From contig JAYEKB010000113.1 of assembly GCA_034660835.1 (NCBI GenBank), positions 1-43,526 of the forward strand: 43,526 nt of DNA, written 5' to 3'. The translations under genes were made by a program, and so were the position numbers. This DNA is from Thermodesulfobacteriota bacterium (GTDB lineage: Bacteria > Desulfobacterota > Desulfobulbia > Desulfobulbales > Desulfobulbaceae). The notes beneath the pieces were generated by a model, which worked only from the letters and a program-made list of their open reading frames with translations, was not told the origin of the DNA and made no database searches. How positions within the stretch are numbered: the first letter of the stretch is position 1; every line of letters starts with the position of its first letter. Shown here piece after piece: positions 2,010 to 35,379 of the stretch.

Positions 2010-3751
2010 CGTGTGCCTACGTTATTGCAGTTTCTTTTTCAACATGCTGAATGCTGAAAACCTTGCGAGGACGGTCAATTACAAGTTTCTTCAACAGGGT
2101 TTTTGCCCCTTTGGGCAGCTCATTTAATTGGTAAAAACTATGACTCGGTGTAACAAATTCCGTGGCCTGAATTTTAGCAAGGATTGGCCTGATCCTTGAC
2201 CACGGTTTCCCGCATTTCAATTCCGCGACTCGTTCTATGAAAAGCGCCAGAACACATATCTTCACATGGGCCTCAATACGACGACCGAGCCAGTGATACA
2301 TCGGCATCATCTTGATCTGAGTACGTTTGAGCGAACGAAAACAGCGTTCAATAACCATCAGGCTCCGGTAACCATAGGCTGCGTCTTCAACGGTCAGTTT
2401 GTCGTCATTAGTCTCCAGAACCCATTTGCCATCATACCTGGCAGCTGTCTTGATTGCCTTGCGATCAATTCGAACTGTGCCTTTATCAGTGATGGTGAGA
2501 TACCGTTTATATCTTCGAGAAGCCAACAGGGCAATGGCCCATTTTTTTGTCGCACTCTTATCCTTGTGCTTTTTCAATTCTTCTTCAAGCATAATAACGA
2601 TATTTTTCCGGTGGGTGGTCTGCCGTCTTGCCTCCCCGGGGTTATAGCAGATGATATATCGTTTCCCGTTCTTCAGGATAACCTCTTTGGCACGCAGGTT
2701 GTCAGACAATTTCCTGTAACGGCCAGGTTGGGAAAGGACCGTCTCTTTTATTTCCTTTACGCTTGCCATTCTGGTGGCAAGCAGGTACTTGCCACAGGCC
2801 TTGGCCAACTCCTTACGATTAACCTTGGAATTCATGCCCGAGTCAGCAACAAACAGAGCCCTGCCAAGATTCCAGCCTCGAAGATCTTTTTTGATTATTT
2901 CAATGGTGCTGACATCAGTGGTATTACCCGGGAATACCCAGCTTTTCACCGGGATTCCTTCTCTGGTTACCGCCAGGGCCACAACAACCTGTGGTGCCCA
3001 CATGCCCTCTTTGGCATGACCATACTGCCGAAGACCGCCTTCCTCTTCATCCTCATAATCAACGGCAAACGAGGCAGTGGTGGTATCGTAGAAAATAATA
3101 TCAACAGACAGATTCAGCAGGTTGGCAACCTGGAAAAATATCTCCCGTTCCACCTCCTCAGCATGATCATGGAAAATATCCATGGCCTCGTACATGTGCC
3201 GCAACTCAAGATCATTACATTCCGGCAGATAAACAGTCTCCAGCCATCTGCCCCATACTCCAAGCTTCGATTCCGGGCTGCAGAGTCGGTTGGCGACCAT
3301 GGCCAGCAAGGCTTTCTCATAAGGTACCTGCTTTTTCTTTGCCAGCTCCCTGAATGTTTTACCGATGCCGTATTGTTCCCACAGTTTCTCGATAGCCCTG
3401 ACCGTGCCGAATTCAACAGTTCGCTTGATCCGGACGTTTTTTGGCAGACCGCCTTGATGGTCATCATCATCCAATGGATCAATAACCTTTACACCACAGA
3501 CCCGGGCGATGGATCGGCACAGTCGGACCAAGGCCTCACGGTCAAGTTGATCGGCTCTGCCAAAGCTGTGGATAATCCTGGCCGTGGATTTCCCGCTGGT
3601 CGGATGCCGTTCATTATGGGCCAGCTGGTAATATTTGGTTACCGAGCCGTCCTTGTTCTTTCTTTGAGTAGTTCGCAAGTACATGATTGCCCATCATGTT
3701 AAATGCAGAGCCATACTATGTCAAGAATAAATAGCACAAACGTGTGCCTAC
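2010..3751 (-). mobile_element. IS1634-family insertion sequence (ends not resolved; range bounded by an 11-bp direct repeat CGTGTGCCTAC)
   Basis: A single long transposase ORF is flanked by identical 11-mers at 2010-2020 and 3741-3751. I could not find convincing terminal inverted repeats by eye. Confidence 0.55.
2017..3684 (-). CDS. IS1634-family (IS4-like DDE) transposase
   Basis: This 555-aa ORF has the N-terminus 'MYLRTTQRKNKDGSVTKYYQLAHNERHP..' characteristic of IS1634-family transposases. DDE-region motifs are present ('IIFYDTTT', 'FVADSGMNS', 'YRSLMVIERCFRSLK'). Confidence 0.9.
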   Translation of the reverse strand: MYLRTTQRKNKDGSVTKYYQLAHNERHPTSGKSTARIIHSFGRADQLDREALVRLCRSIARVCGVKVIDPLDDDDHQGGLPKNVRIKRTVEFGTVRAIEKLWEQYGIGKTFRELAKKKQVPYEKALLAMVANRLCSPESKLGVWGRWLETVYLPECNDLELRHMYEAMDIFHDHAEEVEREIFFQVANLLNLSVDIIFYDTTTASFAVDYEDEEEGGLRQYGHAKEGMWAPQVVVALAVTREGIPVKSWVFPGNTTDVSTIEIIKKDLRGWNLGRALFVADSGMNSKVNRKELAKACGKYLLATRMASVKEIKETVLSQPGRYRKLSDNLRAKEVILKNGKRYIICYNPGEARRQTTHRKNIVIMLEEELKKHKDKSATKKWAIALLASRRYKRYLTITDKGTVRIDRKAIKTAARYDGKWVLETNDDKLTVEDAAYGYRSLMVIERCFRSLKRTQIKMMPMYHWLGRRIEAHVKICVLALFIERVAELKCGKPWSRIRPILAKIQATEFVTPSHSFYQLNELPKGAKTLLKKLVIDRPRKVFSIQHVEKETAIT

Positions 3752-24795: not shown

Positions 24796-25452
24796 TTAAG
24801 CTAAATAGTAAACGTTTGGTTTTGTCATTGTTTTCGGTCTGTCAGTGATTTTCACGAACTTTCCATCCTTCCCGGCAAGGACATAGGCTCTATCTTTTTC
24901 CTTGCTCAAGAGACGGCTAACCTCACTTTGAGAATCCAGTAAATCCCCAAAATAAAGAGCATGCCCCTGACAGGTCCTTACACAGGCAGGTAGTTCTCCT
25001 TTGTTGATAAATTCAACGCAAAAAGTACACTTGTCTGCTCGTTCTGCAGGTGCACTTGGGCTGGAAAACACCCTTAAATATGGCTTGCCATATGGGCAGG
25101 CATCAACGCAACTCCCGTCCCCTTCGCATTTATCGTAATCCACCAGCACAATACCATCTTCATTCTTTGTAATGGCATCTACCGGACAAGCCTCAACGCA
25201 AGCAGGTTCATCACAGTGCATGCATGGTTCAAACACGGAAAGCATATTTCCGTCTTCCCGGATGGATTCCGCTAACCTGCTGTTCATTTGCTGGACATCC
25301 CCATCAAGCCAGGCCATGATTTCTTTCCGCATCAGTACCGGATCATCAAGCTCACGATTTATCGGGCTATTCCAGGTCATACTGCATATGGCTATGCAAC
25401 CTTTGCAATCAATACACTTCCTTAAGTCTATAACCATCCCGTACTTTTTCAT
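24796..25452 (-). CDS. 4Fe-4S dicluster electron-transfer subunit of a Mo/W-bisPGD oxidoreductase
   Basis: 'MKKYGMVIDLRKCIDCKGCIAICS' and further CxxCxxCxxxCP groups are typical of DmsB/PsrB/FdhB-type subunits. It starts 1 nt after the stop of the catalytic subunit gene. Confidence 0.9.
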   Translation of the reverse strand: MKKYGMVIDLRKCIDCKGCIAICSMTWNSPINRELDDPVLMRKEIMAWLDGDVQQMNSRLAESIREDGNMLSVFEPCMHCDEPACVEACPVDAITKNEDGIVLVDYDKCEGDGSCVDACPYGKPYLRVFSSPSAPAERADKCTFCVEFINKGELPACVRTCQGHALYFGDLLDSQSEVSRLLSKEKDRAYVLAGKDGKFVKITDRPKTMTKPNVYYLA

Positions 25453-25453
25453 T

Positions 25454-28138
25454 TTACACCTCTGTTTTGATAATTCTTACAGAAACATATTGAAAACCAG
25501 GCTCCTTGGACGCTGGATCGTAAAAGTCAGCAGTGATAATGTTGCCGGCAGTCGTGCCGGGAGGTTTCTCAAATTTGGATCGAAAGTAATCTACAGCTGC
25601 ACCAAAGCACCAGGGAATCCACACGAAGCCCTCCCGAGGCGGCATGGCTTTTTCAATGCGTGCTTTAACGGTTATGTATCCTCTTTTGCTCTCAACCCTC
25701 ACTGTCTCGCCATCTTTAATCTTTAGCTTTCCGGCATCCTGTTCACAGATGGCGACAAAAGGTTCAGGTAAAAGTATTTGGTTCAACATGCATCGTCCGG
25801 TTTGGGCTCTCGTATGCCAGTGTTCCAATCGAACCGGAAGGCCGGCAACCATGGGAAATTCTTTGGTTACAGCATCTTTCTCTTGAACATTGTCCCATAA
25901 CCAACCCCTCATTTTGCCGTTGGGTGTGGCGAAACGTTTGCCAAATTTTCTCTCGTACTTTTCGTCATAGAGGATAGCGGTCCCCTTATCTGTAAGAGAA
26001 GTTACGGGATACTTAAAACCAGTATATCCTTTAAAATCCTTTTCAGTTCTTAATCGCTGATAGGTTATTCCGCTGACATCGTTTGAGGGAACCCCCTTGG
26101 AGATTAGCGCCAAATCCATCCAGAGGAGTTCTGCCAGCCTTGGAGAGATTTCCCTTACCCGGTCAAAGTTCCCATCTATATCATCAAAGACGGCGATTTC
26201 TTTTTCCCCTACCCTGTTTAAAAGGAAATCAAGGAGTTTTGCCTCCCGCTGCCTCCCCTTTCCTTTCAGCTTTTTTGAATATCGATAGGCAAACGCCAGC
26301 AGTATCGTCGAATCAGACAGTGCTTTGCCAGGTGGAGATACCGCCATTTCGTGGAGTTGTATTCTTCTGTCCGTATTTGAATAGGTGCCGGTGGCTTCCC
26401 CTGAAAGTGTTGCTGCCGGCAGGAGAACATCAGCATAAAAGGCAGTCTCATTCTTATTGAAGATGTCCTGCACAACTACCAACTCAGCCTTTTGTAATGC
26501 GCTGTTGACCATGTTCAAATCGGGCATGGACACCATGGGATTGGTACACATGATCCAGATACCCTTAATTCCGCCTGTTCCAATGCCCTTGAACATATCC
26601 ACGGCTGTTTTACCTAATCTGGACAGGCCGTCCGGCATCTCCAGGTTATCCATAAGCATGGAGTAGATATCCTGGTCTCCATTAGAAAGGGTCTGCGCAA
26701 ATTCTCTTCTGACTTTGGGTACAGGTTGATTTCTGTTGGCAGGCAGCCTCCCTACTATAGATCCGCCCAGTCGTTGTCCCAGGCCGTTTGGCTGGCCAAC
26801 AGTGGGGTTGACACCGGAACCTTTTTTGCCGATCCGACCCGCCACAGCATGAAGTGTGAAGAGCGCGGTTCCTTTCGCAACACCGGTAGTCGTATGCCCG
26901 AATCCCTGAAGGAAAATGGACATGGTGTTCTTTTTCCTGGAAAACAGCCGGGCAAGTTTCTTGATATCTTCCGCCGGAATGCCGATTTGCTCTTGAACAT
27001 CTTCGGGCCGGAACTTTTTAACGTGCTCCGCATAAAGCGCAAAACCCTCAAGCCCAGATGCCAGTTTGAGGTCTTTAAAGGTCAAGGGGCCTCGTTTACC
27101 TAATTTGCCGAGTACTGAATAATCACCTTTGAAAAATTCAACATACCGGCTGATAAAATCAAGGTCGATGTGTTGCGCCTGCACTTTCCCTTCTTTAAGA
27201 AGGGATATCCATTGTGCTGCATCGCCACCATAATTTTTATTTACCCCTTCAAAATCGTATATAAGCGTATATGCAATGCTGTTAATAAGATTAATGTCCT
27301 GGGCCGGCTTAATTGGGATATACATGTCCCCTTTTGTATAATCTAAGATCTTGCATGCCCGTATCTTAACCGGGTCAATGATAATCAGCCGCAGCTCATC
27401 ATTCTTTGCTTTTGCATCTGCAATTTTGCCGAACCAGCCCGGAAGGCTGTCAGCCATATTACAGCCGAAAATAAAGAGATTGTCTGTTTCATAAACGTCG
27501 TCATAGTCCATAGGCGGGGCATCCGTGCCCAGCGATGCGACATGGCTGATGACGTGTGTCGCCTGGCACAGCCTGCCATTATTGTCGACGTGTATATTCA
27601 TGCCCAATTTCATAAAAAGGGCCTGGGCATATTCTGTCTCGTTGGAAACGTGGCCGCTTCCGTAAAATGCGAAATCTCTCTTGTCTCCGGAGAATTTTCT
27701 TGTATATTGTTCAACCTCGTCCGCGATCAGATCCAGAGCCTCATTCCAGGAGGCCTTTTTAAATCTTTTAAAACCACCCCTTAATTTTTTATCCCTTATC
27801 ATGGGAGAGAGAATTCTATCCTCAGTTCCCGGTGCTCCGGGTAACCGTAAATCAGGCAGGGTAGCTCCTTTAATGCAGAGTCTTCCTTCATTCCAGGCCG
27901 CAGGATTCCCGCTGACCGAAATAATGCGATTTTCTCTAACGCCGTACAACAGTCCGCAACCACAGGCGCAATAAGGGCAGATGGCCGGAACAAATCGGTC
28001 GACATCAAATGTGTCGGCAAACGCTTCCGGTGCTGATAAAAAACTTTGCAGTTCATTCTTATCCTTGAAAAAAACTCTTCCGGAAGAAGTTGCTATCATC
28101 AGGAAAAGACTTCCTTTAAGAAAATCCCTTCTTTTCAT
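25454..28138 (-). CDS. Tat-exported molybdopterin (Mo/W-bisPGD) oxidoreductase catalytic subunit, Cys-ligand type, substrate unknown
   Basis: The twin-arginine signal is 'MKRRDFLKGSLFLMIATSSG'. The FS0 motif is 'CPYCACGCGLL..RLCIKG'. The putative Mo-ligand context is 'NNGRLCQATHV'. I chose ATG 28138 because AGGAGGAG lies just upstream; the listed ORF extends to 28189. Confidence 0.9.
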   Translation of the reverse strand: MKRRDFLKGSLFLMIATSSGRVFFKDKNELQSFLSAPEAFADTFDVDRFVPAICPYCACGCGLLYGVRENRIISVSGNPAAWNEGRLCIKGATLPDLRLPGAPGTEDRILSPMIRDKKLRGGFKRFKKASWNEALDLIADEVEQYTRKFSGDKRDFAFYGSGHVSNETEYAQALFMKLGMNIHVDNNGRLCQATHVISHVASLGTDAPPMDYDDVYETDNLFIFGCNMADSLPGWFGKIADAKAKNDELRLIIIDPVKIRACKILDYTKGDMYIPIKPAQDINLINSIAYTLIYDFEGVNKNYGGDAAQWISLLKEGKVQAQHIDLDFISRYVEFFKGDYSVLGKLGKRGPLTFKDLKLASGLEGFALYAEHVKKFRPEDVQEQIGIPAEDIKKLARLFSRKKNTMSIFLQGFGHTTTGVAKGTALFTLHAVAGRIGKKGSGVNPTVGQPNGLGQRLGGSIVGRLPANRNQPVPKVRREFAQTLSNGDQDIYSMLMDNLEMPDGLSRLGKTAVDMFKGIGTGGIKGIWIMCTNPMVSMPDLNMVNSALQKAELVVVQDIFNKNETAFYADVLLPAATLSGEATGTYSNTDRRIQLHEMAVSPPGKALSDSTILLAFAYRYSKKLKGKGRQREAKLLDFLLNRVGEKEIAVFDDIDGNFDRVREISPRLAELLWMDLALISKGVPSNDVSGITYQRLRTEKDFKGYTGFKYPVTSLTDKGTAILYDEKYERKFGKRFATPNGKMRGWLWDNVQEKDAVTKEFPMVAGLPVRLEHWHTRAQTGRCMLNQILLPEPFVAICEQDAGKLKIKDGETVRVESKRGYITVKARIEKAMPPREGFVWIPWCFGAAVDYFRSKFEKPPGTTAGNIITADFYDPASKEPGFQYVSVRIIKTEV

Positions 28139-28352
28139 TTTCTCCTCCTGTTTGAAAAATTCTTTCTTTAATCCTTCATTCATTTGCAACTGAAGGAAAA
28201 CCCGGTGGAAATTCGGTAACGCTTTGAAGCATCCCGGCTGTGTATCTATTTATCGCATAATGAAACCTTCCTTAGTAATGTGTGATATAAGTTAGAAATC
28301 GAGGGTGGATAGTAGGTATCATAAGTTCTATGATTTCTAAAATAGCAGCAGC

Positions 28353-28481: not shown

Positions 28482-28520
28482 AAAAAAAGCCGAACTACCT
28501 TTCTCCAAGGCAGCCCGGCT
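28482..28520 (-). terminator. candidate rho-independent terminator (strand-specific)
   Basis: The minus-strand RNA AGCCGGGCUGCC-UUGGAGAAA-GGUAGUUCGGCU forms a 12-bp stem (3 G-U pairs) followed by U7. On the plus strand the G-U pairs would become A-C mismatches. Confidence 0.55.
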
Positions 28521-28596
28521 ATCTAACAGACCCGTGACTTTCCGTCCCTGTCTTGCGGCAGGTTTGGCTTTGTCTTATTTCCAGATGAAAATTACT

Positions 28597-29000
28597 CTAT
28601 AGAAAATTATATATGAATGGCGGGTTAAAAATCAAGGGAACAGCGTGGCACTGACTGAAAGTAAATGGCCGCTCCGTTAAAGTCATTGCGGCACTAATAC
28701 TTTTACGAAGAAGAATTTCACGGAAGAGTAGAGCGCTGAAAAGTCCGGTATTATCACTTTTCATCCGGAAGTACCAGACCTTTGCGAGAGCTGGGTGTGA
28801 GTTCCGGTTTTCCAGTCTCCGCTGATCCGGCATTTACTCCAGATCAAAATATGTCGTTCCAGGTTCATCGCCAAACAATCTTGCCAGGAGGTTCTTTCCA
28901 CCTTGCCGTGGAATAATCAAGGATACAACCGGTGCTCGATGGTGCCATCATCAAGTTCCCTTCTCAGTTTTTTATGTACTGCCAACTCTGCGATAAACAT
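28597..29000 (-). pseudogene. decayed AAA ATPase (COG1373/AAA_14-DUF4143-like) N-terminal remnant
   Basis: Frame-hopping translation gives 'MFIAELAVHKKLRRELDDGTIEHRLYP*', then 'IIPRQGGKNLLARLFGDEPGTTYFDLE*MPDQRRLENRNSHPALA..'. The second stretch resembles the GPRQVGKTTL P-loop and YFDLE/DP box of that family. The P-loop is degenerate, and there are an in-frame stop and a frameshift. Confidence 0.35.
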
Positions 29001-29037: not shown

Positions 29038-29348
29038 AGGAGATTGTTGAAAATAGTCCATTGGAGAATTATTCGACGGATTGAAGTGCATTTTGTCAAA
29101 TGCTTAGCTGAAATGTCAAATTGCGTTCTTTGATTTTTCTTCCACCGCCACGTCTGAATGTAAGCCCTGTCGTATGTTACGAGAAATACAGATTCATAGT
29201 ACGAGTTATACGCCTGGGCGTGTATAATTTCGGTTTGAAGAACAATGGACAGCTCTCTAAATACGGCTCCCAAGTCATCCCTCCTGAAAAAAGATTATAG
29301 GACGGCCATAACTCCACTGTTTCAATAAAGGAAAAGGATGGTAAATCC

Positions 29349-30086
29349 ATGCAGAAAATCATATCCCTCTTTACCGGAAAATATGGATTAACCAGAAATG
29401 AAGTCATTGTAGAGATAGAAAAGGTTTTCTCAGACATACTCTCTGGGTGGTACCGCTTTGAGGTAATGGTCGTTTTTCATCAGGATCTCCAGTTGGAAGC
29501 TGTAGCGTATAACAAGATTGGTGGTGTGCTCCTGCAAAGGAGCATTGATCTTAAAAAAATACGAGGCTGGAATTCTATCAGAAAACATCTGGAAAAGAGT
29601 CTGCTGAAGGCCTCCGTTCTCAAACAGACCCAGCAGTATAAATACTATGAGAGGGAACTACGTTGGGGAGAGATCACGACCATTGATGCCGGGCAAAACT
29701 ATCATATTGAGATCGAGGTAATTCCTGGCGAGATGATGACAGCGTTTTGCCCCCTTAATCGTGTTGGTCTCCATGAACGTAATTCTGATAACTTTTCCAT
29801 TGGCATGAAAAGAGCTTTTCATGTTCGCAGAGTTGATCCGGTTTTCCTGAACGGTACACCTCGCCTAAAGGTGGTGGTAGATCGGGTGTCCAAAACGCTT
29901 GTTGAGACCCTCCTGAAAGAACAACTTGGATATTTTGCCGAAAAAATGACAATTCGCTGCACAAAGCGATATGTGGGACAGAAGAGTTTTGTTATTACTT
30001 CCAGGCGGATTCCGAAGTCTGCAATTGTCGCTGTGACAAGGGAACTGAACGAGAAAATGCAAGTCAGGTTTGACCGGAATTTATGA
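29349..30086 (+). CDS. NusA-like protein (NTD + S1 + single KH-like region; lacks KH2 and C-terminal repeats)
   Basis: The order of segments is collinear with NusA. 'LTRNEVIVEIEKVFSDIL' aligns with NusA 'LPREKIFEALESALATA'. 'GEITTIDAGQNYHIEIEVIPGEMMTAFCPLNRVGLHERNSDNFSIGMKRAFHVRRV' aligns with the S1 region '[37 protein letters not shown]'. 'RVSKTLVETLLKEQL' aligns with 'RSKPEMLIELFRIEV'. This alignment is from recall and was not computed. Confidence 0.65.
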   Translation: MQKIISLFTGKYGLTRNEVIVEIEKVFSDILSGWYRFEVMVVFHQDLQLEAVAYNKIGGVLLQRSIDLKKIRGWNSIRKHLEKSLLKASVLKQTQQYKYYERELRWGEITTIDAGQNYHIEIEVIPGEMMTAFCPLNRVGLHERNSDNFSIGMKRAFHVRRVDPVFLNGTPRLKVVVDRVSKTLVETLLKEQLGYFAEKMTIRCTKRYVGQKSFVITSRRIPKSAIVAVTRELNEKMQVRFDRNL

Positions 30087-31456
30087 ACCTCTGGAAATGG
30101 AAAAGGAAAAAACAAAAAATTGAAAAAGAATGGACGCATATCGGCACTGGCGTTCACCTTGATCATCCAGAAACCATTATGGAGCTGGAATTTCCTGACA
30201 GTTACCGTAAAGGGCACTTCTGGTGCTTCGGGACTACCCGAGTGGGGAAAACCCGGATCATGGAACACATCATCGAGCAGGATATCCGCAAGGGATATTC
30301 GGTGGTGGCCATGGACCCAAAGGGCGATATTGATCTGTTTTCAAAAATCACTGAAGTGGCCGAAAAAACAGGCCGCCTCCAAGATTTAATGCTGATAACT
30401 CCGATTTTCCCACAATACAGTGCTATCCTTGATCCCCTTTCCTCCTATTACATGCCCGAAGAACTGGTGGCCCATATTACCGCCGGAGTTGCCGTGGGCA
30501 GGGAGCCGTATTTTTTCAGCGTTGCCTACGAAGTCAGCTTGGTCGTAGTTCAGGCACTGATTATTCTGGACGGGGGGAACCGTACTACTCCGTCGTTCAA
30601 CCTCAACGATATAAAAAACCATATCAGTCATCAGGATTTGGAACAGCTCAAAGATCGGCTTGATTATATTGACCATCCCGAGGCGGAGCAGCTTTGCAGG
30701 GATATGCAGAAGATCCTCTCCACTCCGCCGGATTATTACTCCAAAGTGGCCAGCTCGCTTCGGGTTGCGCTCACCGAATTGACTTCCGGCAATGTCGGCC
30801 AGATTATCGGTAAGGCGGATGAAAACAGATTTATAAAACGGCTGGAACAGGGCAAGGGAATTATTCTGGTAGTGCAGCTTGGTTCGCTCCTTACCAAGCG
30901 GGCTGCCTATACCGCAGGCAAGGTAATCATCTCCATGATCCAGGCCTTTGTCGGTCGGGTCTATTCCAGTGGTAAAAACGTTACTCCTTCTCTGGTACTG
31001 CATATAGATGAAGCACAATCAGTTCTCTACCACGGCATTGAGGATTTATTTGCCAAGGCAGGTGGGGCCGGGGTTTTCATCCATGGTTACTGCCAATCCA
31101 TCAGCCAGCTATATACCGAGGTCGGGGAAGATCGTGCTAATAGCATTCTGGATAACTGTAACACCAAACTTTTCATGCGGGTGCCGGATGCAAACACGGC
31201 ATCCTATGTTTCCAGGCATCTTGGTGAGGAACGTCGATTCTCGCCGATTATCTCGGTGGGAGGTGGTCTGTCCATTCGTGAGACCGAGGAAGTTAGGATC
31301 AAGCACACCGAGGTGCTGAACATGGCACCTCGGGAACTGTTTTTAAGTACTTACTCCGGCACCTATAAAGGAAAGACTGCAACCGTCCTGGATGGGGATC
31401 TGAAGGTGGAATTTCCTGATCTTGCCGGGGAAACCATGGGAGGAGCGAGCCCATGA
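30083..31456 (+). CDS. T4CP/TraD/VirD4-superfamily P-loop ATPase without N-terminal membrane anchor
   Basis: Walker A is 'HFWCFGTTRVGKTR', followed by 'VVAMDPKGD'. Walker B is 'LVLHIDEAQSV'. The TraG-D_C-like block is 'GVFIHGYCQSISQLYTEVGEDRANSILDNCNTKLFMRVPDANTASYVSRHLGE'. There is an ATGA overlap with the upstream gene. Confidence 0.8.
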   Translation: MNLWKWKRKKQKIEKEWTHIGTGVHLDHPETIMELEFPDSYRKGHFWCFGTTRVGKTRIMEHIIEQDIRKGYSVVAMDPKGDIDLFSKITEVAEKTGRLQDLMLITPIFPQYSAILDPLSSYYMPEELVAHITAGVAVGREPYFFSVAYEVSLVVVQALIILDGGNRTTPSFNLNDIKNHISHQDLEQLKDRLDYIDHPEAEQLCRDMQKILSTPPDYYSKVASSLRVALTELTSGNVGQIIGKADENRFIKRLEQGKGIILVVQLGSLLTKRAAYTAGKVIISMIQAFVGRVYSSGKNVTPSLVLHIDEAQSVLYHGIEDLFAKAGGAGVFIHGYCQSISQLYTEVGEDRANSILDNCNTKLFMRVPDANTASYVSRHLGEERRFSPIISVGGGLSIRETEEVRIKHTEVLNMAPRELFLSTYSGTYKGKTATVLDGDLKVEFPDLAGETMGGASP

Positions 31457-31482
31457 CTCTTTTTTTAGCTTTTCCCTGATTG

Positions 31483-32919
31483 ATGTTCGGGCTTGAAATG
31501 TTATTAAAAGCAGCAGACCTGCGCAGTGGCATGTTGTGGCTGGCGATTGTGCTGGTACTGGTTGTTGTAGCTGTGTTGATCTTTGGCAGGAAAAAACAAG
31601 AAGAAGTCGTCATTATCAGGCAGATTTCTCTGAAAGACCTCTCAGCGGTATGGGAAAAGAAAGGTGCCAGAACAATTCATATATCGAAACTCTCTCCCTT
31701 GTGGCGGGATGAAAAGATACTTGCCAGGGAAGATGAATATCCTGAGCTGCAAAACCTACGGGCAGCTGCTTTCATGGAAAAGATTCGACAATGGTCATGG
31801 TTTAATAAATTCCCGCAACAGAAGGTGATATGCGGACAGATTTTGAAATTGCTCGACCAGGAAGGGCATTGCCCCTCGGTTGTCGATATTCAAGGAGATG
31901 TCGAAGGGAGCTGGGATGAAAATACCTACCAGCTTCTTGCCGGAACAACCCTGCTTGATCATTCGCTTAATGTGGCGGAACAGGTGGTGCAGTTGCTTTC
32001 CGACGACAAGGCCTGTCATGTCATCCCCGATACCATGATAGCAGCCCTTGCCCATGACCTGGGGAAACTTGAATCCATGCGGGGCTATCTCTACTCTCTG
32101 GGTGAGCATCCACTTGCTGCCGGACGACCGTTGGCCGGAATTCCAGGATTTAAGGAACTACGCAGGAAAGATGAAATCCTGCAGGCGATCAAGCTGCATC
32201 ACAAGAGGCCACAGGGGTTGCTTGGTAAAACCCTGAAAAAGGCGGATCAAAAGGCTCGGCAGATGGAGCTGGAAGATGCTGCCCTGAAAATTGATACATC
32301 TGAAGCAAATCCGGTTGAGGACATAAAGCCTGTACCAGGTAAAGAGAAACAGGGAACAAAAAGCACTGCTGCCTGGAAGGCCCAGGAAGACATCTACAAT
32401 GAAACTGGGGGAGAGGGCCGGAAAAAATCACAGATGGAAAAACCACAGTTGATGGATATCTCCGGCTGGTTTGATGCAGAAAAATTTCTGGATGAGCTGA
32501 AACCATACATAAACAAGATGTTTGGCCGTCGATTCATGGCCTTTTCCATGTCGGACGGCCATGTCTATTTCCAAGCCAAGGTTCTTGAAGAGGTTGCCCG
32601 TAAGCAAGCGGAACAGGCAGGGAACATGGAAATTGCCACCATGGGCCAGAGAGATGAATCCATGCGCAGTGTGCTCCTTAGCATTGTCAATCATCTCCGG
32701 GCAGATCATGAGGTTATTGCCCGAGGATTGATTAAGGATAACTTTTTCGGGGGCTATTTCAATGTGACACGGAAAATCGGCAAACCCATCAAGGGATATT
32801 ATACACCGTTTCATGCTGAAGCTTTCGGATCCATTGCAGAGATGGAACAGAATAAACCAAAAATGCTACGTGATATTGTCAAGGTCAGCCCATATCTGGA
32901 CAACAATGCGGATACGTAA
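31483..32919 (+). CDS. membrane-anchored HD-domain protein
   Basis: The N-terminal TM segment is 'MLWLAIVLVLVVVAVLIF'. The HD signature is 'LLDHSLNVAEQ..IAALAHDLGKL..LGEHPLAAG..AIKLHHKRP'. The C-terminal half is long and charged. Confidence 0.75.
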   Translation: MFGLEMLLKAADLRSGMLWLAIVLVLVVVAVLIFGRKKQEEVVIIRQISLKDLSAVWEKKGARTIHISKLSPLWRDEKILAREDEYPELQNLRAAAFMEKIRQWSWFNKFPQQKVICGQILKLLDQEGHCPSVVDIQGDVEGSWDENTYQLLAGTTLLDHSLNVAEQVVQLLSDDKACHVIPDTMIAALAHDLGKLESMRGYLYSLGEHPLAAGRPLAGIPGFKELRRKDEILQAIKLHHKRPQGLLGKTLKKADQKARQMELEDAALKIDTSEANPVEDIKPVPGKEKQGTKSTAAWKAQEDIYNETGGEGRKKSQMEKPQLMDISGWFDAEKFLDELKPYINKMFGRRFMAFSMSDGHVYFQAKVLEEVARKQAEQAGNMEIATMGQRDESMRSVLLSIVNHLRADHEVIARGLIKDNFFGGYFNVTRKIGKPIKGYYTPFHAEAFGSIAEMEQNKPKMLRDIVKVSPYLDNNADT

Positions 32920-33635
32920 TGGCTAAAGAATGGGAAAACAGAGGGCAGAGCGATACCAATGCTCAGATCATCACCACTGATTCCGGCAGGATCTACAGGC
33001 CGAGAAATTTGCTCAATGCCATTTCAGAGGTCCAGCAGTTTTTTGTAATCGAAAGTAAAGGGCAGGATATCCCAGGTGAATTCCTTACGCTGGAACATAC
33101 TCTGGATTTTTTCAAGATCGGGATAAAGAGTGGCTTTCATGAAGGCTTTGCCCTGGTGCTGTTGTTTCCGGTTTTCCATTTTTATCTCTTCCCCTTTGTT
33201 TTTCAGAAGCTTGATTTTGTCAGTCATATCCTGTTCGGATCTATCCCCTACCTTGTTCTGATGGTCAATACAGCCATGTGCTGCTATATCAGTCGCTACT
33301 ATGTGGGCAATATCACCAGAAAGGCAATCAACTCTTTGCTCATGGGCCGGGCCATGTCTCTGCTGCTCAAGGCCTTTCTCCTGTATGTGCTCTATCTGGT
33401 GCTTTATCGACTCAGCACACCGGAGAATATTTGGAAACTTGCCATGCAGTTCGGGTCAAGGGCGGAGGAAATATATAATGGGTTCTTTGAGATAAAACCG
33501 CATCTGATGCCTGTGGCCACTGAAAGCTCTGTTCTTATGGTGGTGGCGGCAATTTTTCCATACGGTTCGGTTTATCTGCTGGACCTGTGGCGGAGGTACA
33601 GGATCAAGAGGAATGCAAAAATTATTTCTGCATAA
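32919..33635 (+). CDS. polytopic membrane protein, unknown family
   Basis: Its start overlaps the upstream stop by 1 nt (TAATG). Four to five hydrophobic helices are present, for example 'FALVLLFPVFHFYLFPFVF', 'IPYLVLMVNTAMCCYI', 'LLLKAFLLYVLYLVLY' and 'VLMVVAAIFPYGSVYLL'. Confidence 0.65.
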   Translation: MAKEWENRGQSDTNAQIITTDSGRIYRPRNLLNAISEVQQFFVIESKGQDIPGEFLTLEHTLDFFKIGIKSGFHEGFALVLLFPVFHFYLFPFVFQKLDFVSHILFGSIPYLVLMVNTAMCCYISRYYVGNITRKAINSLLMGRAMSLLLKAFLLYVLYLVLYRLSTPENIWKLAMQFGSRAEEIYNGFFEIKPHLMPVATESSVLMVVAAIFPYGSVYLLDLWRRYRIKRNAKIISA

Positions 33636-33687
33636 TCTGCAGGGCTGGCCATTAGGTGCTGGTAATTTAATAAAAATGGGAGAAAAA

Positions 33688-34053
33688 ATGACGGACACAA
33701 ACGAAAAGGAGAAAAAAAGACCTTCATGGCAGGAAATACAGGAAAAAAAGATCAGCATGGCCAAGGAACGTGGAGCACGGGTATTAAAAGTCAATTCACC
33801 CCTTGGCTCAACCATGTTCAACATCCTGCGCCAGTTTGATATGGCCTATACCCATTTCAAGGCAAGACTCGGAGAAATGGATGGGATCTCACACGAGGAA
33901 GGTGAAGAACTGATGGCAGAGGGAAGAGAGATCATCATAGCCTTTTCCAACTATACTGCCAGGCTCAGTAAAAAAATACGCTTCCGATACTATACTCCCC
34001 GGGAGATCAGCGAGTTTATGAAAACCTCCCAGGATGACGATACGGTAAATTAG
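33688..34053 (+). CDS. small charged hypothetical protein (121 aa)
   Basis: GGGAG lies upstream of ATG 33688; ATG 33676 is an alternative start. The gene is convergent with the integrase, with an 8-nt gap. I recognise no family. Confidence 0.5.
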   Translation: MTDTNEKEKKRPSWQEIQEKKISMAKERGARVLKVNSPLGSTMFNILRQFDMAYTHFKARLGEMDGISHEEGEELMAEGREIIIAFSNYTARLSKKIRFRYYTPREISEFMKTSQDDDTVN

Positions 34054-34061
34054 ACTTCCTC

Positions 34062-35111
34062 CTATAGCCCAAGGCTAGCTATGCGGTCGACAGCCTTTAA
34101 TTTATGGTCATCAAGGAGGTGTGTGTAACGCATGGTCATGGATATTGTTTTATGCCCCAGTATATCGGCCACTGTCCGTAAATCGACTCCATTCATAATC
34201 ATGTAGCTCGCGGCGGTATGCCTCAAATCGTGCATATGGAAGTCTTCGATTCTGGCCCTTTTGACTGCCGCTTCAAAGCTTTCCCGGAAATATTGGTTCG
34301 GTCGCCGTCGGTAAGTCATTTTAGGTTGCCTGGGTAAAAAAACGAAATCCTTGCATTTGTAACCTCTTTCCAGGACAAGCTCGGATAATATTTCAATAGC
34401 CGAGACGGTCAACGGTACCCGGCGCGGATCCGTCTTGGTCTGTTGCAGATCAATGATTCTTCCATCAAAATCAACCTGTCCCCAGGTCAACCCAGCTCCT
34501 TCACTCGGACGCATCCCGGTATGAAGCTGTAGCACAATAAAATGGTACAGATTTGGCCGATGGCCCTTTTTGCTCTCTTTAAGCAAACTCTTGATTTCAG
34601 CATCGGTTAAAAAACGCAACCTCCCCTGCGGTGTTTTCGGTTTGCGAATAATGGCCACAGGATTGGTCGCCTCAATTCCCCACTCACGAAGTGCAGTGCT
34701 ATAAATATGGGAAAGCATACTGAGATCTTTGATGACCGTCGCCGGTTGAACTTTTGCCAACCGCGTATCACGAAACTGGGCAGCCAAAGTTGGAGTAATC
34801 TCTTTCAGGGTTTTACCGAAAAAATAGTGAAGGGATCGAGACTGGTACAATTCCCGCCGATGGGTCGACTTTGCCTTTTTGCTTGAGACCTCTGCCAGAT
34901 ATTTTTCCAAAGCATCATCAAACAGCATATCGTTTGACGGTGCGTTACCAATATACCCGTCATTGCGAAGGGCAGCCTCTGTATCCTCGGCCCATCGTTG
35001 GGCTTCAGACTTACGATCAAATGTCTGTGATAACCTGGGATGACCTTTGACCCGAACCTCTGCCCGATAAACAGCTCCCCTCTTCCTTTTTACAGCTCTT
35101 ACAGTTGCCAT
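34062..35111 (-). CDS. tyrosine recombinase / phage-type integrase
   Basis: The N-terminal arm-binding-like region is 'YRAEVRVKGHPRLSQTFDRKSEAQRWAED'. Catalytic motifs are 'LHTGMRPSEGAGLTW', 'HDLRHTAASYM', 'LGHKTISMTMRYTHL' (R..HxxR..Y). I prefer ATG 35111; the listed 35117 is GTG. Confidence 0.92.
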   Translation of the reverse strand: MATVRAVKRKRGAVYRAEVRVKGHPRLSQTFDRKSEAQRWAEDTEAALRNDGYIGNAPSNDMLFDDALEKYLAEVSSKKAKSTHRRELYQSRSLHYFFGKTLKEITPTLAAQFRDTRLAKVQPATVIKDLSMLSHIYSTALREWGIEATNPVAIIRKPKTPQGRLRFLTDAEIKSLLKESKKGHRPNLYHFIVLQLHTGMRPSEGAGLTWGQVDFDGRIIDLQQTKTDPRRVPLTVSAIEILSELVLERGYKCKDFVFLPRQPKMTYRRRPNQYFRESFEAAVKRARIEDFHMHDLRHTAASYMIMNGVDLRTVADILGHKTISMTMRYTHLLDDHKLKAVDRIASLGL

Positions 35112-35151
35112 ACCCACACACTCCGAAAAGGATAGTGTGCCCTTGACCTTT

Positions 35152-35175
35152 TTTTGGGCGCACTTTTGGGCGCAC
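35152..35175. repeat. perfect tandem 12-mer TTTTGGGCGCAC x2 (plus partial third TTTT) upstream of the integrase
   Basis: Read directly from the sequence. The copies are at 35152-35163 and 35164-35175, 41-64 nt upstream of the integrase ATG on the minus strand. Confidence 0.9.
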
Positions 35176-35241
35176 TTTTTCGTAATTTATGCAATTCAGT
35201 GCTAATCTGTGGCAACTATAGCTCATCCGAGCCATAAAAGC

Positions 35242-35280
35242 AAAAAAGCCCTGAACCGTAGTATTACTGCGATTCAGGGC
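35242..35280 (-). terminator. rho-independent terminator immediately downstream of tRNA-Leu
   Basis: On the minus strand, GCCCTGAA-17 nt loop-TTCAGGGC is followed by TTTTTTG. It begins 12 nt after the tRNA CCA end. Confidence 0.6.
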
Positions 35281-35291
35281 TCTATTATAGA

Positions 35292-35379
35292 TGGTGCCGA
35301 AGGCGAGATTCGAACTCGCACGACCGTGGGCCACTACCCCCTCAAGATAGCGTGTCTACCAGTTCCACCACTTCGGCAC
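35292..35379 (-). tRNA. tRNA-Leu (anticodon GAG), class II with long variable arm, CCA encoded
   Basis: The minus strand reads GTGCCGAAGTGGTGGAACTGGTAGACACGCTATCTTGAGGGGGTAGTGGCCCACGGTCGTGCGAGTTCGAATCTCGCCTTCGGCACCA. The acceptor 7 bp pair. The anticodon stem is CTATC/GGTAG with loop TTGAGGG. The T-loop GTTCGAATC is present. Confidence 0.9.

Follow-up and report, generated by a model that had tools for sequence, protein, structure and literature searches.

Integrative mobilisable elements (IMEs) that encode their own relaxase and coupling protein, such as those of streptococci, are small, carry a site-specific recombinase, target a housekeeping or tRNA gene, bring their own type IV coupling protein (T4CP) and lack mating-pore genes. 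Here we describe an element of ~6.4 kb in a 43,526-nt stretch of contig JAYEKB010000113.1 (hereafter the window), from a Thermodesulfobacteriota bacterium of the family Desulfobulbaceae (assembly GCA_034660835.1). The ORF (open reading frame) map, a tRNA scan and the sequence itself placed the element at the 3' end of a tRNA-Leu(GAG) gene, where it consists of a tyrosine integrase gene and five co-directional genes, here called P1 to P5. It shares with the streptococcal type of IME the small size, the recombinase, the tRNA-adjacent target, the T4CP gene and the absence of pore genes. It differs from that type in its host phylum, Thermodesulfobacteriota, in a candidate relaxase that falls outside the MOB families, in a T4CP that is split from its membrane anchor, and in its additional NusA-like and four-helix membrane proteins. 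We regard the region as probably an IME with a non-canonical coupling and DNA-processing module.

The described modules to which it can best be compared combine a MOBH relaxase, an SXT-type TraD and a TraJ/DUF4400 protein, as in SXT/R391, IncA/C, ICEclc/PAPI-1 and the gonococcal genetic island. MOBH relaxases belong to the HD superfamily and consist of an N-terminal relaxase domain that bears an alternative 3H motif (S-E-x-H-H-H, located upstream of its first HD histidine) together with an HD motif, a middle region that is disordered, and a globular C-terminal domain of ~140 amino acids (aa), to which gonococcal TraI adds an N-terminal membrane-binding helix (PMC6736028). These enzymes nick single-stranded DNA with Mn2+ or Co2+ and form no stable covalent adduct, and their origin of transfer (oriT) has an inverted repeat 3' of nic (PMC6736028). 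Three features of the Desulfobulbaceae module parallel these systems: P2 is most similar to SXT-type TraD; its gene adjoins that of P3, an HD protein in which, as in gonococcal TraI, a membrane helix, a disordered linker and a globular C-domain are combined; and the gene of a polytopic membrane protein, P4, adjoins the T4CP gene, as DUF4400/TIGR03747 genes follow traD on the IncC and ICE-type plasmids that we inspected. In contrast to these systems, P2 has no N-terminal transmembrane (TM) domain, P3 has neither the 3H motif nor any detected similarity to TraI_2, TraI_2_C or TIGR03760, P4 has no detectable homology to TraJ/DUF4400/TIGR03747, and no NusA-like gene such as P1 was present among the loci inspected there.

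A second point of comparison is provided by the 'Hodor' conjugative megaplasmids, whose relaxase module pairs a short, MOBH-like HD nuclease with a separate helicase, the nucleases being tied to TIGR03760 by HHsearch and by structure (PMC12934698). Common to Hodor and the module described here are conjugation without a canonical relaxase, an HD-superfamily nuclease proposed to act as one, and a helicase that is encoded separately. The two differ in host, in the type of type IV secretion system (T4SS) and in accessory genes, and the HMMER-based tools used here gave no such link to TIGR03760 for P3. Four features set the module apart: its T4CP is anchorless, its HD protein lies outside all MOB profiles, its partner with four TM helices (4 TM) is non-homologous, and it includes a NusA-like protein.

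The five genes are tightly packed between 29349 and 34053 and converge on the integrase gene beside tRNA-Leu(GAG) (Table 1). P1 and P2 overlap in an ATGA at 30083-30086, P3 and P4 meet in a TAATG at 32917-32921, the stops of the fifth ORF (34053) and of the convergent integrase gene (34062) are eight bases apart, and 181 nt separate the integrase ATG (35111) from the 3' end of the tRNA gene. An earlier note on this DNA, made from the letters and ORFs alone, had described the co-directional operon with these junctions, the integrase and the tRNA gene, and the ORF map and tRNA scan found all of them; only the start of P5 was moved, to 33688. The domain calls of that note also held, P1 being NusA-like by structure, P2 an anchorless T4CP-type ATPase, P3 a TM-anchored HD protein and P4 polytopic, and, as it had stated, the cassette matches no named system.

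We compared the locus with 79 loci from a scan of one genome per species and 80 loci from a metagenome scan (individual loci are given as L plus a number). Homologues of P1 and P3 were found by the hundreds at 60-90% identity, and their named sources were nearly all Desulfobulbaceae, Desulfocapsaceae and related Desulfobulbales. More than 100 loci carry the set, almost all of them in Desulfobulbales, including one in the complete genome of Desulfopila sp. IMCC35008 (NZ_CP050700). Essentially all related loci that extend far enough keep the order P1-P2-P3-P4-P5. Chance falls far short of explaining the arrangement: the same order recurs in the 79 genome and 80 metagenome loci. The synteny across genomes that the earlier note had proposed to search for is conserved. 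Among 66 loci with ≥2.5 kb of sequence after P5 (or after P4 where P5 went undetected), 43 had a homologous integrase gene on the opposite strand, at a median of 437 nt, and 39 of these 43 had a tRNA gene within 600 nt beyond the integrase (Arg-CCT in 21, Leu-GAG in 8, Leu-TAA in 5, Leu-CAA in 2, Arg-TCT in 2 and SeC in 1), with a Phe-GAA tRNA at one further locus. Orthologues of the integrase itself (77-90% identity) adjoin tRNA-Leu(GAG) in six other genome loci (L036, L040, L041, L066, L077 and L081). Several genomes carry 2-4 copies, one of which, L069, is visibly decaying. In a few loci (L003, L022 and L029) 5-6 kb of variable cargo lie between P5, or an HU-like gene that follows it, and the integrase. 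Since synteny is kept while this cargo varies, the five genes are the conserved core of a mobile element family and not its cargo.

No T4SS genes were present among the window ORFs checked. F-type T4SS homologues were likewise absent within ±10 kb of any chromosomal locus, and seven divergent loci had DUF932, RadC and DUF6094 in their flanks but no T4SS Pfam families. An identity as an integrative conjugative element (ICE) was rejected on these grounds, no pore genes having been seen in the window ORFs checked or in the locus flanks. A viral origin was also rejected, as a relative of P3 was found on only 1 of 2.9 million viral contigs.

We further searched 72,556 plasmids with P2 by tblastn and used iterated hidden Markov model searches for P1 and P4. 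Close P2 homologues (35-49% identity, ~94% coverage) were identified on eight plasmids from Geobacterales, Desulfuromonadales, Desulfobacterales and Campylobacterota, each with a P3 homologue adjacent to it; P1 homologues were found on six of the eight and P4 homologues also on six. The module genes found, in order where known, are P1-P2-P3-x-P4 on Trichlorobacter lovleyi pIAE1 (typed MPF_T), P1-P2-P3 on Geobacter anodireducens pSD and Pelobacter propionicus pPRO1, P4-P2-P3 on a Desulfosarcina sp. BuS5 plasmid and Aliarcobacter cibarius pACIB, P1-P4-P2-P3 on Campylobacter upsaliensis plasmid 2, and P1-P4-HD_5-P2-P3 on C. iguaniorum pCIG1485E and Nitrosophilus labii pHRV44. What immediately follows the P1 homologue is either the T4CP gene or P4. 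The P4 homologues adjoin the T4CP gene on six plasmids and immediately precede it in C. upsaliensis and Aliarcobacter. On all eight plasmids T4SS genes, for the most part F-type ones (such as TraU, TrbC, TraN, TraF, TraH, TraL-E-K-B-V, TraG), flank the module genes on one or both sides. On pPRO1, for example, the order is transglycosylase, P1, P2, P3, TraF, TraH, and on pACIB it is TraL-E-K-B-V, DsbC, transglycosylase, TraN, P4, P2, P3, signal peptidase, TraU, TrbC, TraG. On the C. upsaliensis plasmid, which we examined from end to end, the F-type T4SS is complete, the sole T4CP is the P2 homologue and no relaxase is annotated. Several plasmids encode a UvrD-type helicase or a topoisomerase nearby, and in C. 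upsaliensis and T. lovleyi UvrD-type helicase genes are neighbours of the module. On Thermovibrio ammonificans pTHEAM01 (Aquificota), the ninth plasmid, no P3 was found and the P2 homologue is a more distant one, 36% identical over 73% of the query. Literature searches on NusA-like proteins and conjugation, on T4CPs and cyclic di-GMP (c-di-GMP), and on relaxases of the C. upsaliensis plasmid found no description of this module.

A role of the genes as a conjugative mobilisation module is well supported, because they are the conserved core of tRNA-integrating elements without mating-pore genes and because P1-P4 homologues lie beside or inside T4SS clusters on plasmids. One of two hypotheses in the earlier note had been a minimal mobilisation module of an IME with a T4CP and a MOBH-like HD relaxase. 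Family synteny and the plasmid T4SS context uphold its first half; the assignment of P3 to a MOBH-like relaxase is not established, as the HD motif and the layout match while the 3H motif and a MOBH profile match are lacking.

P2, the most conserved protein of the set (73-95% identity), exceeded the Pfam cut-offs for TraG-D_C (2e-16, 60.5 bits, cut-off 22), TrwB_AAD_bind (9e-14, 51.6 bits, cut-off 20.5) and T4SS-DNA_transf (1e-11, 44.7 bits, cut-off 20.1). Against TIGR03743 (SXT_TraD) it scored 1e-50 and 172.9 bits, below the cut-off of 366, with an alignment that runs from profile position 167 onward; by these profile scores P2 is a lineage related to, yet distinct from, SXT-type TraD. A Walker A motif, GTTRVGKT, is found at residue 50. 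Residues 1-143 contain no hydrophobic segment that could form an N-terminal TM domain, and the plasmid homologues are likewise only ~440-490 aa long. The protein is, as predicted from these features, a T4CP-type ATPase without a membrane anchor.

P3 has a TM helix at residues 17-35, a conserved N-domain followed by the HD domain, a disordered linker at ~275-322 and a conserved C-terminal domain at ~325-470. Its AlphaFold2 (AF2) model has a mean confidence score (pLDDT) of 67, the HD and C-terminal (~145 aa) domains being confident and the linker low. P3 matched Pfam HD at 2.5e-5, and its closest specific profile was the Cas3 HD nuclease of PADLOC (4.8e-5). The P3 family comprises 725 clusters at 50% identity. 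Among 69 divergent members (23-59% identity to the window protein), five candidate metal ligands (H161, H192-D193, H210 and H240) do not vary and two more (H241 and D256) are kept in ≥90%, and the HDxGK motif (H192-D193-x-G195-K196) is likewise invariant. Foldseek searches with the full-length model returned only generic HD proteins from the PDB and nothing from a viral library. Sequence profiles of P3 and of its C-domain matched nothing among the PDB sequences, and when a database was searched with the C-domain profile, all that came back were fragments of P3-family members, with no informative domain fusions. The sequence of membrane helix, HD domain, disordered linker and C-domain parallels gonococcal TraI, and by analogy P3 plausibly works like a MOBH relaxase, though it is not a demonstrable member of that family.

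The predicted fold of P1 is NusA-like. The AF2 model (pLDDT 87.8) had NusA structures as all of its 12 best Foldseek matches in the PDB (E 1.6e-12 to 4e-4, probability 1.0), at identities of 10-16%, and P1 had no match in Pfam, NCBIfam (including the NusA families) or the PDB sequences. It shares with NusA the order N-terminal domain, S1, KH; at 245 aa it is too short for the second KH domain and the C-terminal repeats of NusA. P1 also differs from NusA in its location on mobile elements, its translational coupling to a T4CP gene and its lack of a NusA profile match. We found no description in the literature of a NusA-like protein in conjugation.

The leader of P1 is conserved as well. A 30-nt motif, GTCATCCCTCCTGAAAAAAGATTATAGGAC, stands at a fixed distance of 70-80 nt 5' of the P1 start in 52 loci. 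Its 5' half resembles an anti-Shine-Dalgarno sequence and can pair with the P1 ribosome-binding region at 29329-29341: the helix that the two would close is present in the minimum free energy folds of 8 of 10 loci, and the duplex energy is -11.2 kcal/mol vs -5.1 ± 2.7 for shuffled partners. Within 29274-29341 the motif, GTCATCCCYCCTGAAAAAAG..TATAGAAC, is followed by a hairpin of variable sequence, around which the pairing would form. RNAalifold gave no consensus structure for the P1 leader, which is partly due to a poor MAFFT alignment. The leader is a candidate for a translational-control RNA that sequesters the ribosome-binding site, for a part of oriT, or for both. Autoregulation by P1 is conceivable, the first gene encoding a NusA-like RNA-binding protein. 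At L025 a second, truncated P1 with its own leader motif (1526-2037) lies 6 kb upstream of a complete element, which suggests tandem accretion or the remnant of an earlier insertion.

P4 has hydropathy peaks at residues 77-95, 98-122, 140-163 and 196-223, preceded by a soluble N-terminal segment of ~70 aa, and matched no family in Pfam, NCBIfam, PHROGs or PADLOC. P5 is kept in the Desulfobulbales elements (51-91% identity); it was absent from the homologous plasmids in the searches made there and had no match in Pfam, NCBIfam, PHROGs or PADLOC. Because its relatives, whose called genes are 117-122 aa long, align only from residue 23-31 of the 146-aa ORF, we place the start of P5 at ATG 33688, the likely start by this alignment, with a GGAG at 33679 and a gap of 52 nt after P4. 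The integrase has its HxxR motif as HDLR at 296 and its catalytic tyrosine in RYTH at 330.

Table 1 Positions in the window of the genes of the element, its tentative ends and adjoining features
Feature	Position	Strand	Basis or remark
c-di-GMP-I-GGC riboswitch (RF03167)	28505-28577	-	Rfam 72 bits
Tentative attL core GATGGTGCC	28938-28946	+	Repeat of 35290-35298
Perfect inverted repeat, 17 bp, 11-nt loop	28994-29038		100% complementary; just inside the tentative left end
Leader motif GTCATCCCTCCTGAAAAAAGATTATAGGAC, 30 nt	29274-29303	+	Conserved upstream of P1
P1, 245 aa, NusA-like: NusA N-terminal domain, S1 barrel, one KH-like domain	29349-30086	+	AF2 and Foldseek
P2, 457 aa, TraD/VirD4-family coupling-protein ATPase	30083-31456	+	Pfam, NCBIfam
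P3, 479 aa, TM-anchored HD phosphodiesterase	31480-32919	+	TTG start; ATG at 31483
P4, 238 aa, integral membrane protein, ~4 TM helices	32919-33635	+	Hydropathy
P5, ~121 aa, charged protein	33688-34053	+	ORF runs from 33613 (146 aa)
Tyrosine integrase, phage-type	34062-35117	-	ATG at 35111; Phage_integrase 1.7e-35; phrog_1 1.6e-80
Tentative attR core	35290-35298		Spans the tRNA-Leu 3' end
tRNA-Leu(GAG), integration target	35292-35377	-	ARAGORN; Rfam tRNA 49.6 bits

These data lead us to propose the following mechanism for the element. The integrase would excise and integrate it. P2 would act as a hexameric motor of the TraD/VirD4 type that feeds DNA into a type IV secretion channel and, having no anchor of its own, would be held at the inner membrane by P4 (4 TM) and/or P3 (1 TM), so that P2, P3 and P4 may form one complex. 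By comparison with MOBH relaxases, nicking at oriT would best be ascribed to the cytoplasmic, presumably binuclear HD domain of P3, and oriT would probably lie in the conserved leader 5' of P1. P1, translationally coupled to P2, would bind the single strand (or the leader RNA) and hand it over to the motor, and P5 would be an accessory protein specific to the element. A helper would be needed for transfer because the element carries no mating-pore genes; a conjugative element in the same cell would supply the channel, probably an F-type T4SS as on most of the module-bearing plasmids. The P1-P4 set may then be an unrecognised conjugative relaxosome and coupling complex and effectively a new MOB class, made up of a membrane-anchored HD nuclease without the 3H motif, a NusA-like strand recruiter and an ATPase split from its anchor. 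We advance this last proposal only tentatively.

The longest exact repeat common to the left flank and the tRNA region is GATGGTGCC, which at 9 nt is at chance level by its length alone and gains some positional support from covering the exact 3' end of the tRNA gene. At the related locus L041 a 14-nt repeat of the same tRNA-Leu 3' end was found, and the 28-nt tRNA 3' end had no repeat within the window at ≤3 mismatches. The left boundary must lie between ~28636 and 29147, because the host promoter and riboswitch end at ~28635. The homology to the closest relative, L001, begins at window position 29147, and the 17-bp inverted repeat is not kept there. The riboswitch has, on the minus strand, a promoter-like site upstream (28635-28606) and a terminator-like hairpin with a T-run (28520-28488). 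Downstream of it follow a short ORF of ~30 aa (ATG 28443) and the host operon, with genes for a molybdopterin oxidoreductase with a Tat signal (25454-28189) and its 4Fe-4S partner (24796-25452). The left flank, which had been taken for non-coding or decayed DNA, thus holds a riboswitch with promoter- and terminator-like sites of its own next to a host operon, and only ~28.64-29.35 kb are left as a candidate element end or leader. Riboswitch and oxidoreductase genes together would constitute a second-messenger-controlled, respiratory-type operon directly beside the element.

Several observations weigh against the reading as an IME and against P3 as its nickase. Searches with the 28-mer, with exact matches of at least 8 nt, across 21 loci and by local alignment yielded no convincing att repeats, the matches being chance-level or locus-specific. 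A circular form was not seen, and no contig had terminal overlaps. A helper T4SS was not shown in any Desulfobulbales genome by the T4SS searches, which covered the locus flanks. The type 'non-mobilizable', assigned to eight of the nine plasmids (the exception, A. cibarius pACIB, is typed MOBV), means that no known relaxase is recognised; it is not proof that a relaxase is lacking, since the PLSDB gene tables are incomplete. P3 had no match to TraI_2 (PF07514), TraI_2_C or TIGR03760 at E ≤ 1, its 69 relatives had none to TraI_2 or TraI_2_C at E ≤ 0.01, and hhalign aligned the P3 family with IncC MobH only over the 11-residue HDxGK motif. At the position of the MOBH 3H motif P3 reads SWDENT (W-D-E) vs SESHHH in IncC MobH. 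A search by hhalign with the P4 family gave no homology to the T4CP partner TraJ/DUF4400/TIGR03747.

The remaining points concern c-di-GMP signalling. The P3 homologues of Nitrosophilus pHRV44 (L095, 10316-12604) and C. iguaniorum pCIG1485E (L180, 9316-11718) carry an inserted GGDEF domain, and on both plasmids a gene for a small HD_5 (HD-GYP-type) protein lies directly 5' of the T4CP gene, with EAL and GGDEF genes in the same tra cluster. On Thermovibrio pTHEAM01 (L096, 7594-8864) the T4CP gene is immediately preceded by GGDEF and EAL genes, and on the T. lovleyi plasmid a response regulator and an EAL protein are encoded downstream. This gene neighbourhood suggests c-di-GMP control of conjugation on the Campylobacterota and Aquificota plasmids, and it suggests for P3 a signalling role rather than that of a nuclease. 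Together with the missing 3H motif and relaxase profile match, it favours the alternative that P3 is not the nickase, and that its HD domain is a regulatory phosphodiesterase, for a cyclic dinucleotide or the like, which gates the coupling ATPase while a helper relaxase or an unrecognised protein does the nicking. We consider this alternative a serious rival, though the less likely one. The HD_5/HD-GYP profile matched neither P3 nor any of the 69 relatives, and the sequence after HH in P3 is KRPQGLLGK, without GYP. The best specific match of P3 is to a Cas3 HD nuclease, and no GGDEF or EAL genes are present on the Desulfobulbales elements. A 6.4-kb element with a coupling protein but no nickase would also be unusual among IMEs. 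In the C. iguaniorum homologue the GGDEF domain sits between the HD domain and part of the C-domain, both of them retained, which is compatible with a regulatory input added to a nuclease scaffold.

That the element exports DNA by itself is very improbable. According to this explanation it would need no T4SS and would encode a membrane-tethered, FtsK/TraB-like pump for double- or single-stranded DNA, comparable to TraB transfer in Streptomyces and to 'transjugation' by Thermus TdtA. The minimal element has nothing but the integrase and the five genes, none of the chromosomal copies had T4SS genes nearby, and P2 is accompanied by two membrane proteins, all of which would suit such a pump. However, P2 belongs to the VirD4/TraD family and not to FtsK/TraB, the homologous genes lie beside T4SS genes or are interleaved with them on eight plasmids, and an inner-membrane pump alone would leave the passage through the Gram-negative outer membrane unexplained. 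The second hypothesis of the earlier note, a membrane-associated anti-phage or anti-plasmid cassette carried as island cargo, was rejected as the least credible of all: islands often bear defence systems, but in the PADLOC check P2 matched mad8 of the MADS system only weakly (8e-13), as did the P3 HD domain Cas3 HD, and no other MADS or Cas component was present, P2 is far closer to conjugative TraD, these genes form an invariant core whereas the true cargo varies, their plasmid homologues lie within T4SS clusters, and viral contigs are nearly devoid of P3 relatives.

Further observations were made on the element family and on the surroundings of this copy. In 83 loci an HU-like gene (Bac_DNA_binding/HU-HIG) stands after P5 and before the integrase (e.g. 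L001 7922-8194, L003 12614-12886, L092 3956-4228); the window copy has none, which was either lost or never present. The more divergent copies L060, L061, L065, L075, L084 and L035 have in common, ~1-3 kb upstream of P1, two minus-strand ORFs whose products are ~225-290 and 317-343 aa long, and genes for DUF932, RadC, a DUF6094 methyltransferase and SNase in divergent-copy flanks may be accessory genes of larger variants. The intergenic region between the integrase and the tRNA gene contains a 12-nt tandem repeat, TTTTGGGCGCAC x2 (35152-35175), which could represent arm-type sites or an element of the int promoter. Elsewhere in the window a DDE transposase gene (DDE_Tnp_1) is found at 2017-3684 on the minus strand, the far side of the tRNA gene is occupied by secG-tpiA-pgk-gap, and the remainder resembles an ordinary anaerobe chromosome, with a hybrid-cluster protein, radical SAM enzymes, MinD/ParA-type Fe-S ATPases and an SAH hydrolase.

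The typing of plasmids and ICEs relies on the recognition of relaxases. Eight plasmids from three bacterial classes have the conserved four-gene set as their only candidate DNA-processing module, and seven of the eight are classed as non-mobilisable despite their T4SS genes; the module set is the core of abundant small integrative elements, often in multiple copies, in the sulfur-cycling Desulfobulbales. If P3 is the nickase and P1 the strand adaptor, they would constitute a new relaxase lineage and offer a testable answer to the question of how a relaxase that does not bind covalently delivers DNA to the T4CP. A new MOB class, if true, would bear on how DNA reaches the T4CP without a covalent adduct, as reported for MOBH and MOBC, would explain the transfer of 'non-mobilizable' F-type plasmids of Geobacterales, Desulfuromonadales, Desulfobacterales and Campylobacterota, and would reveal a large IME family in Desulfobulbales. 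Even if P3 is regulatory, the split T4CP with its NusA-like partner and c-di-GMP inputs would represent a new architecture for the control of conjugation.

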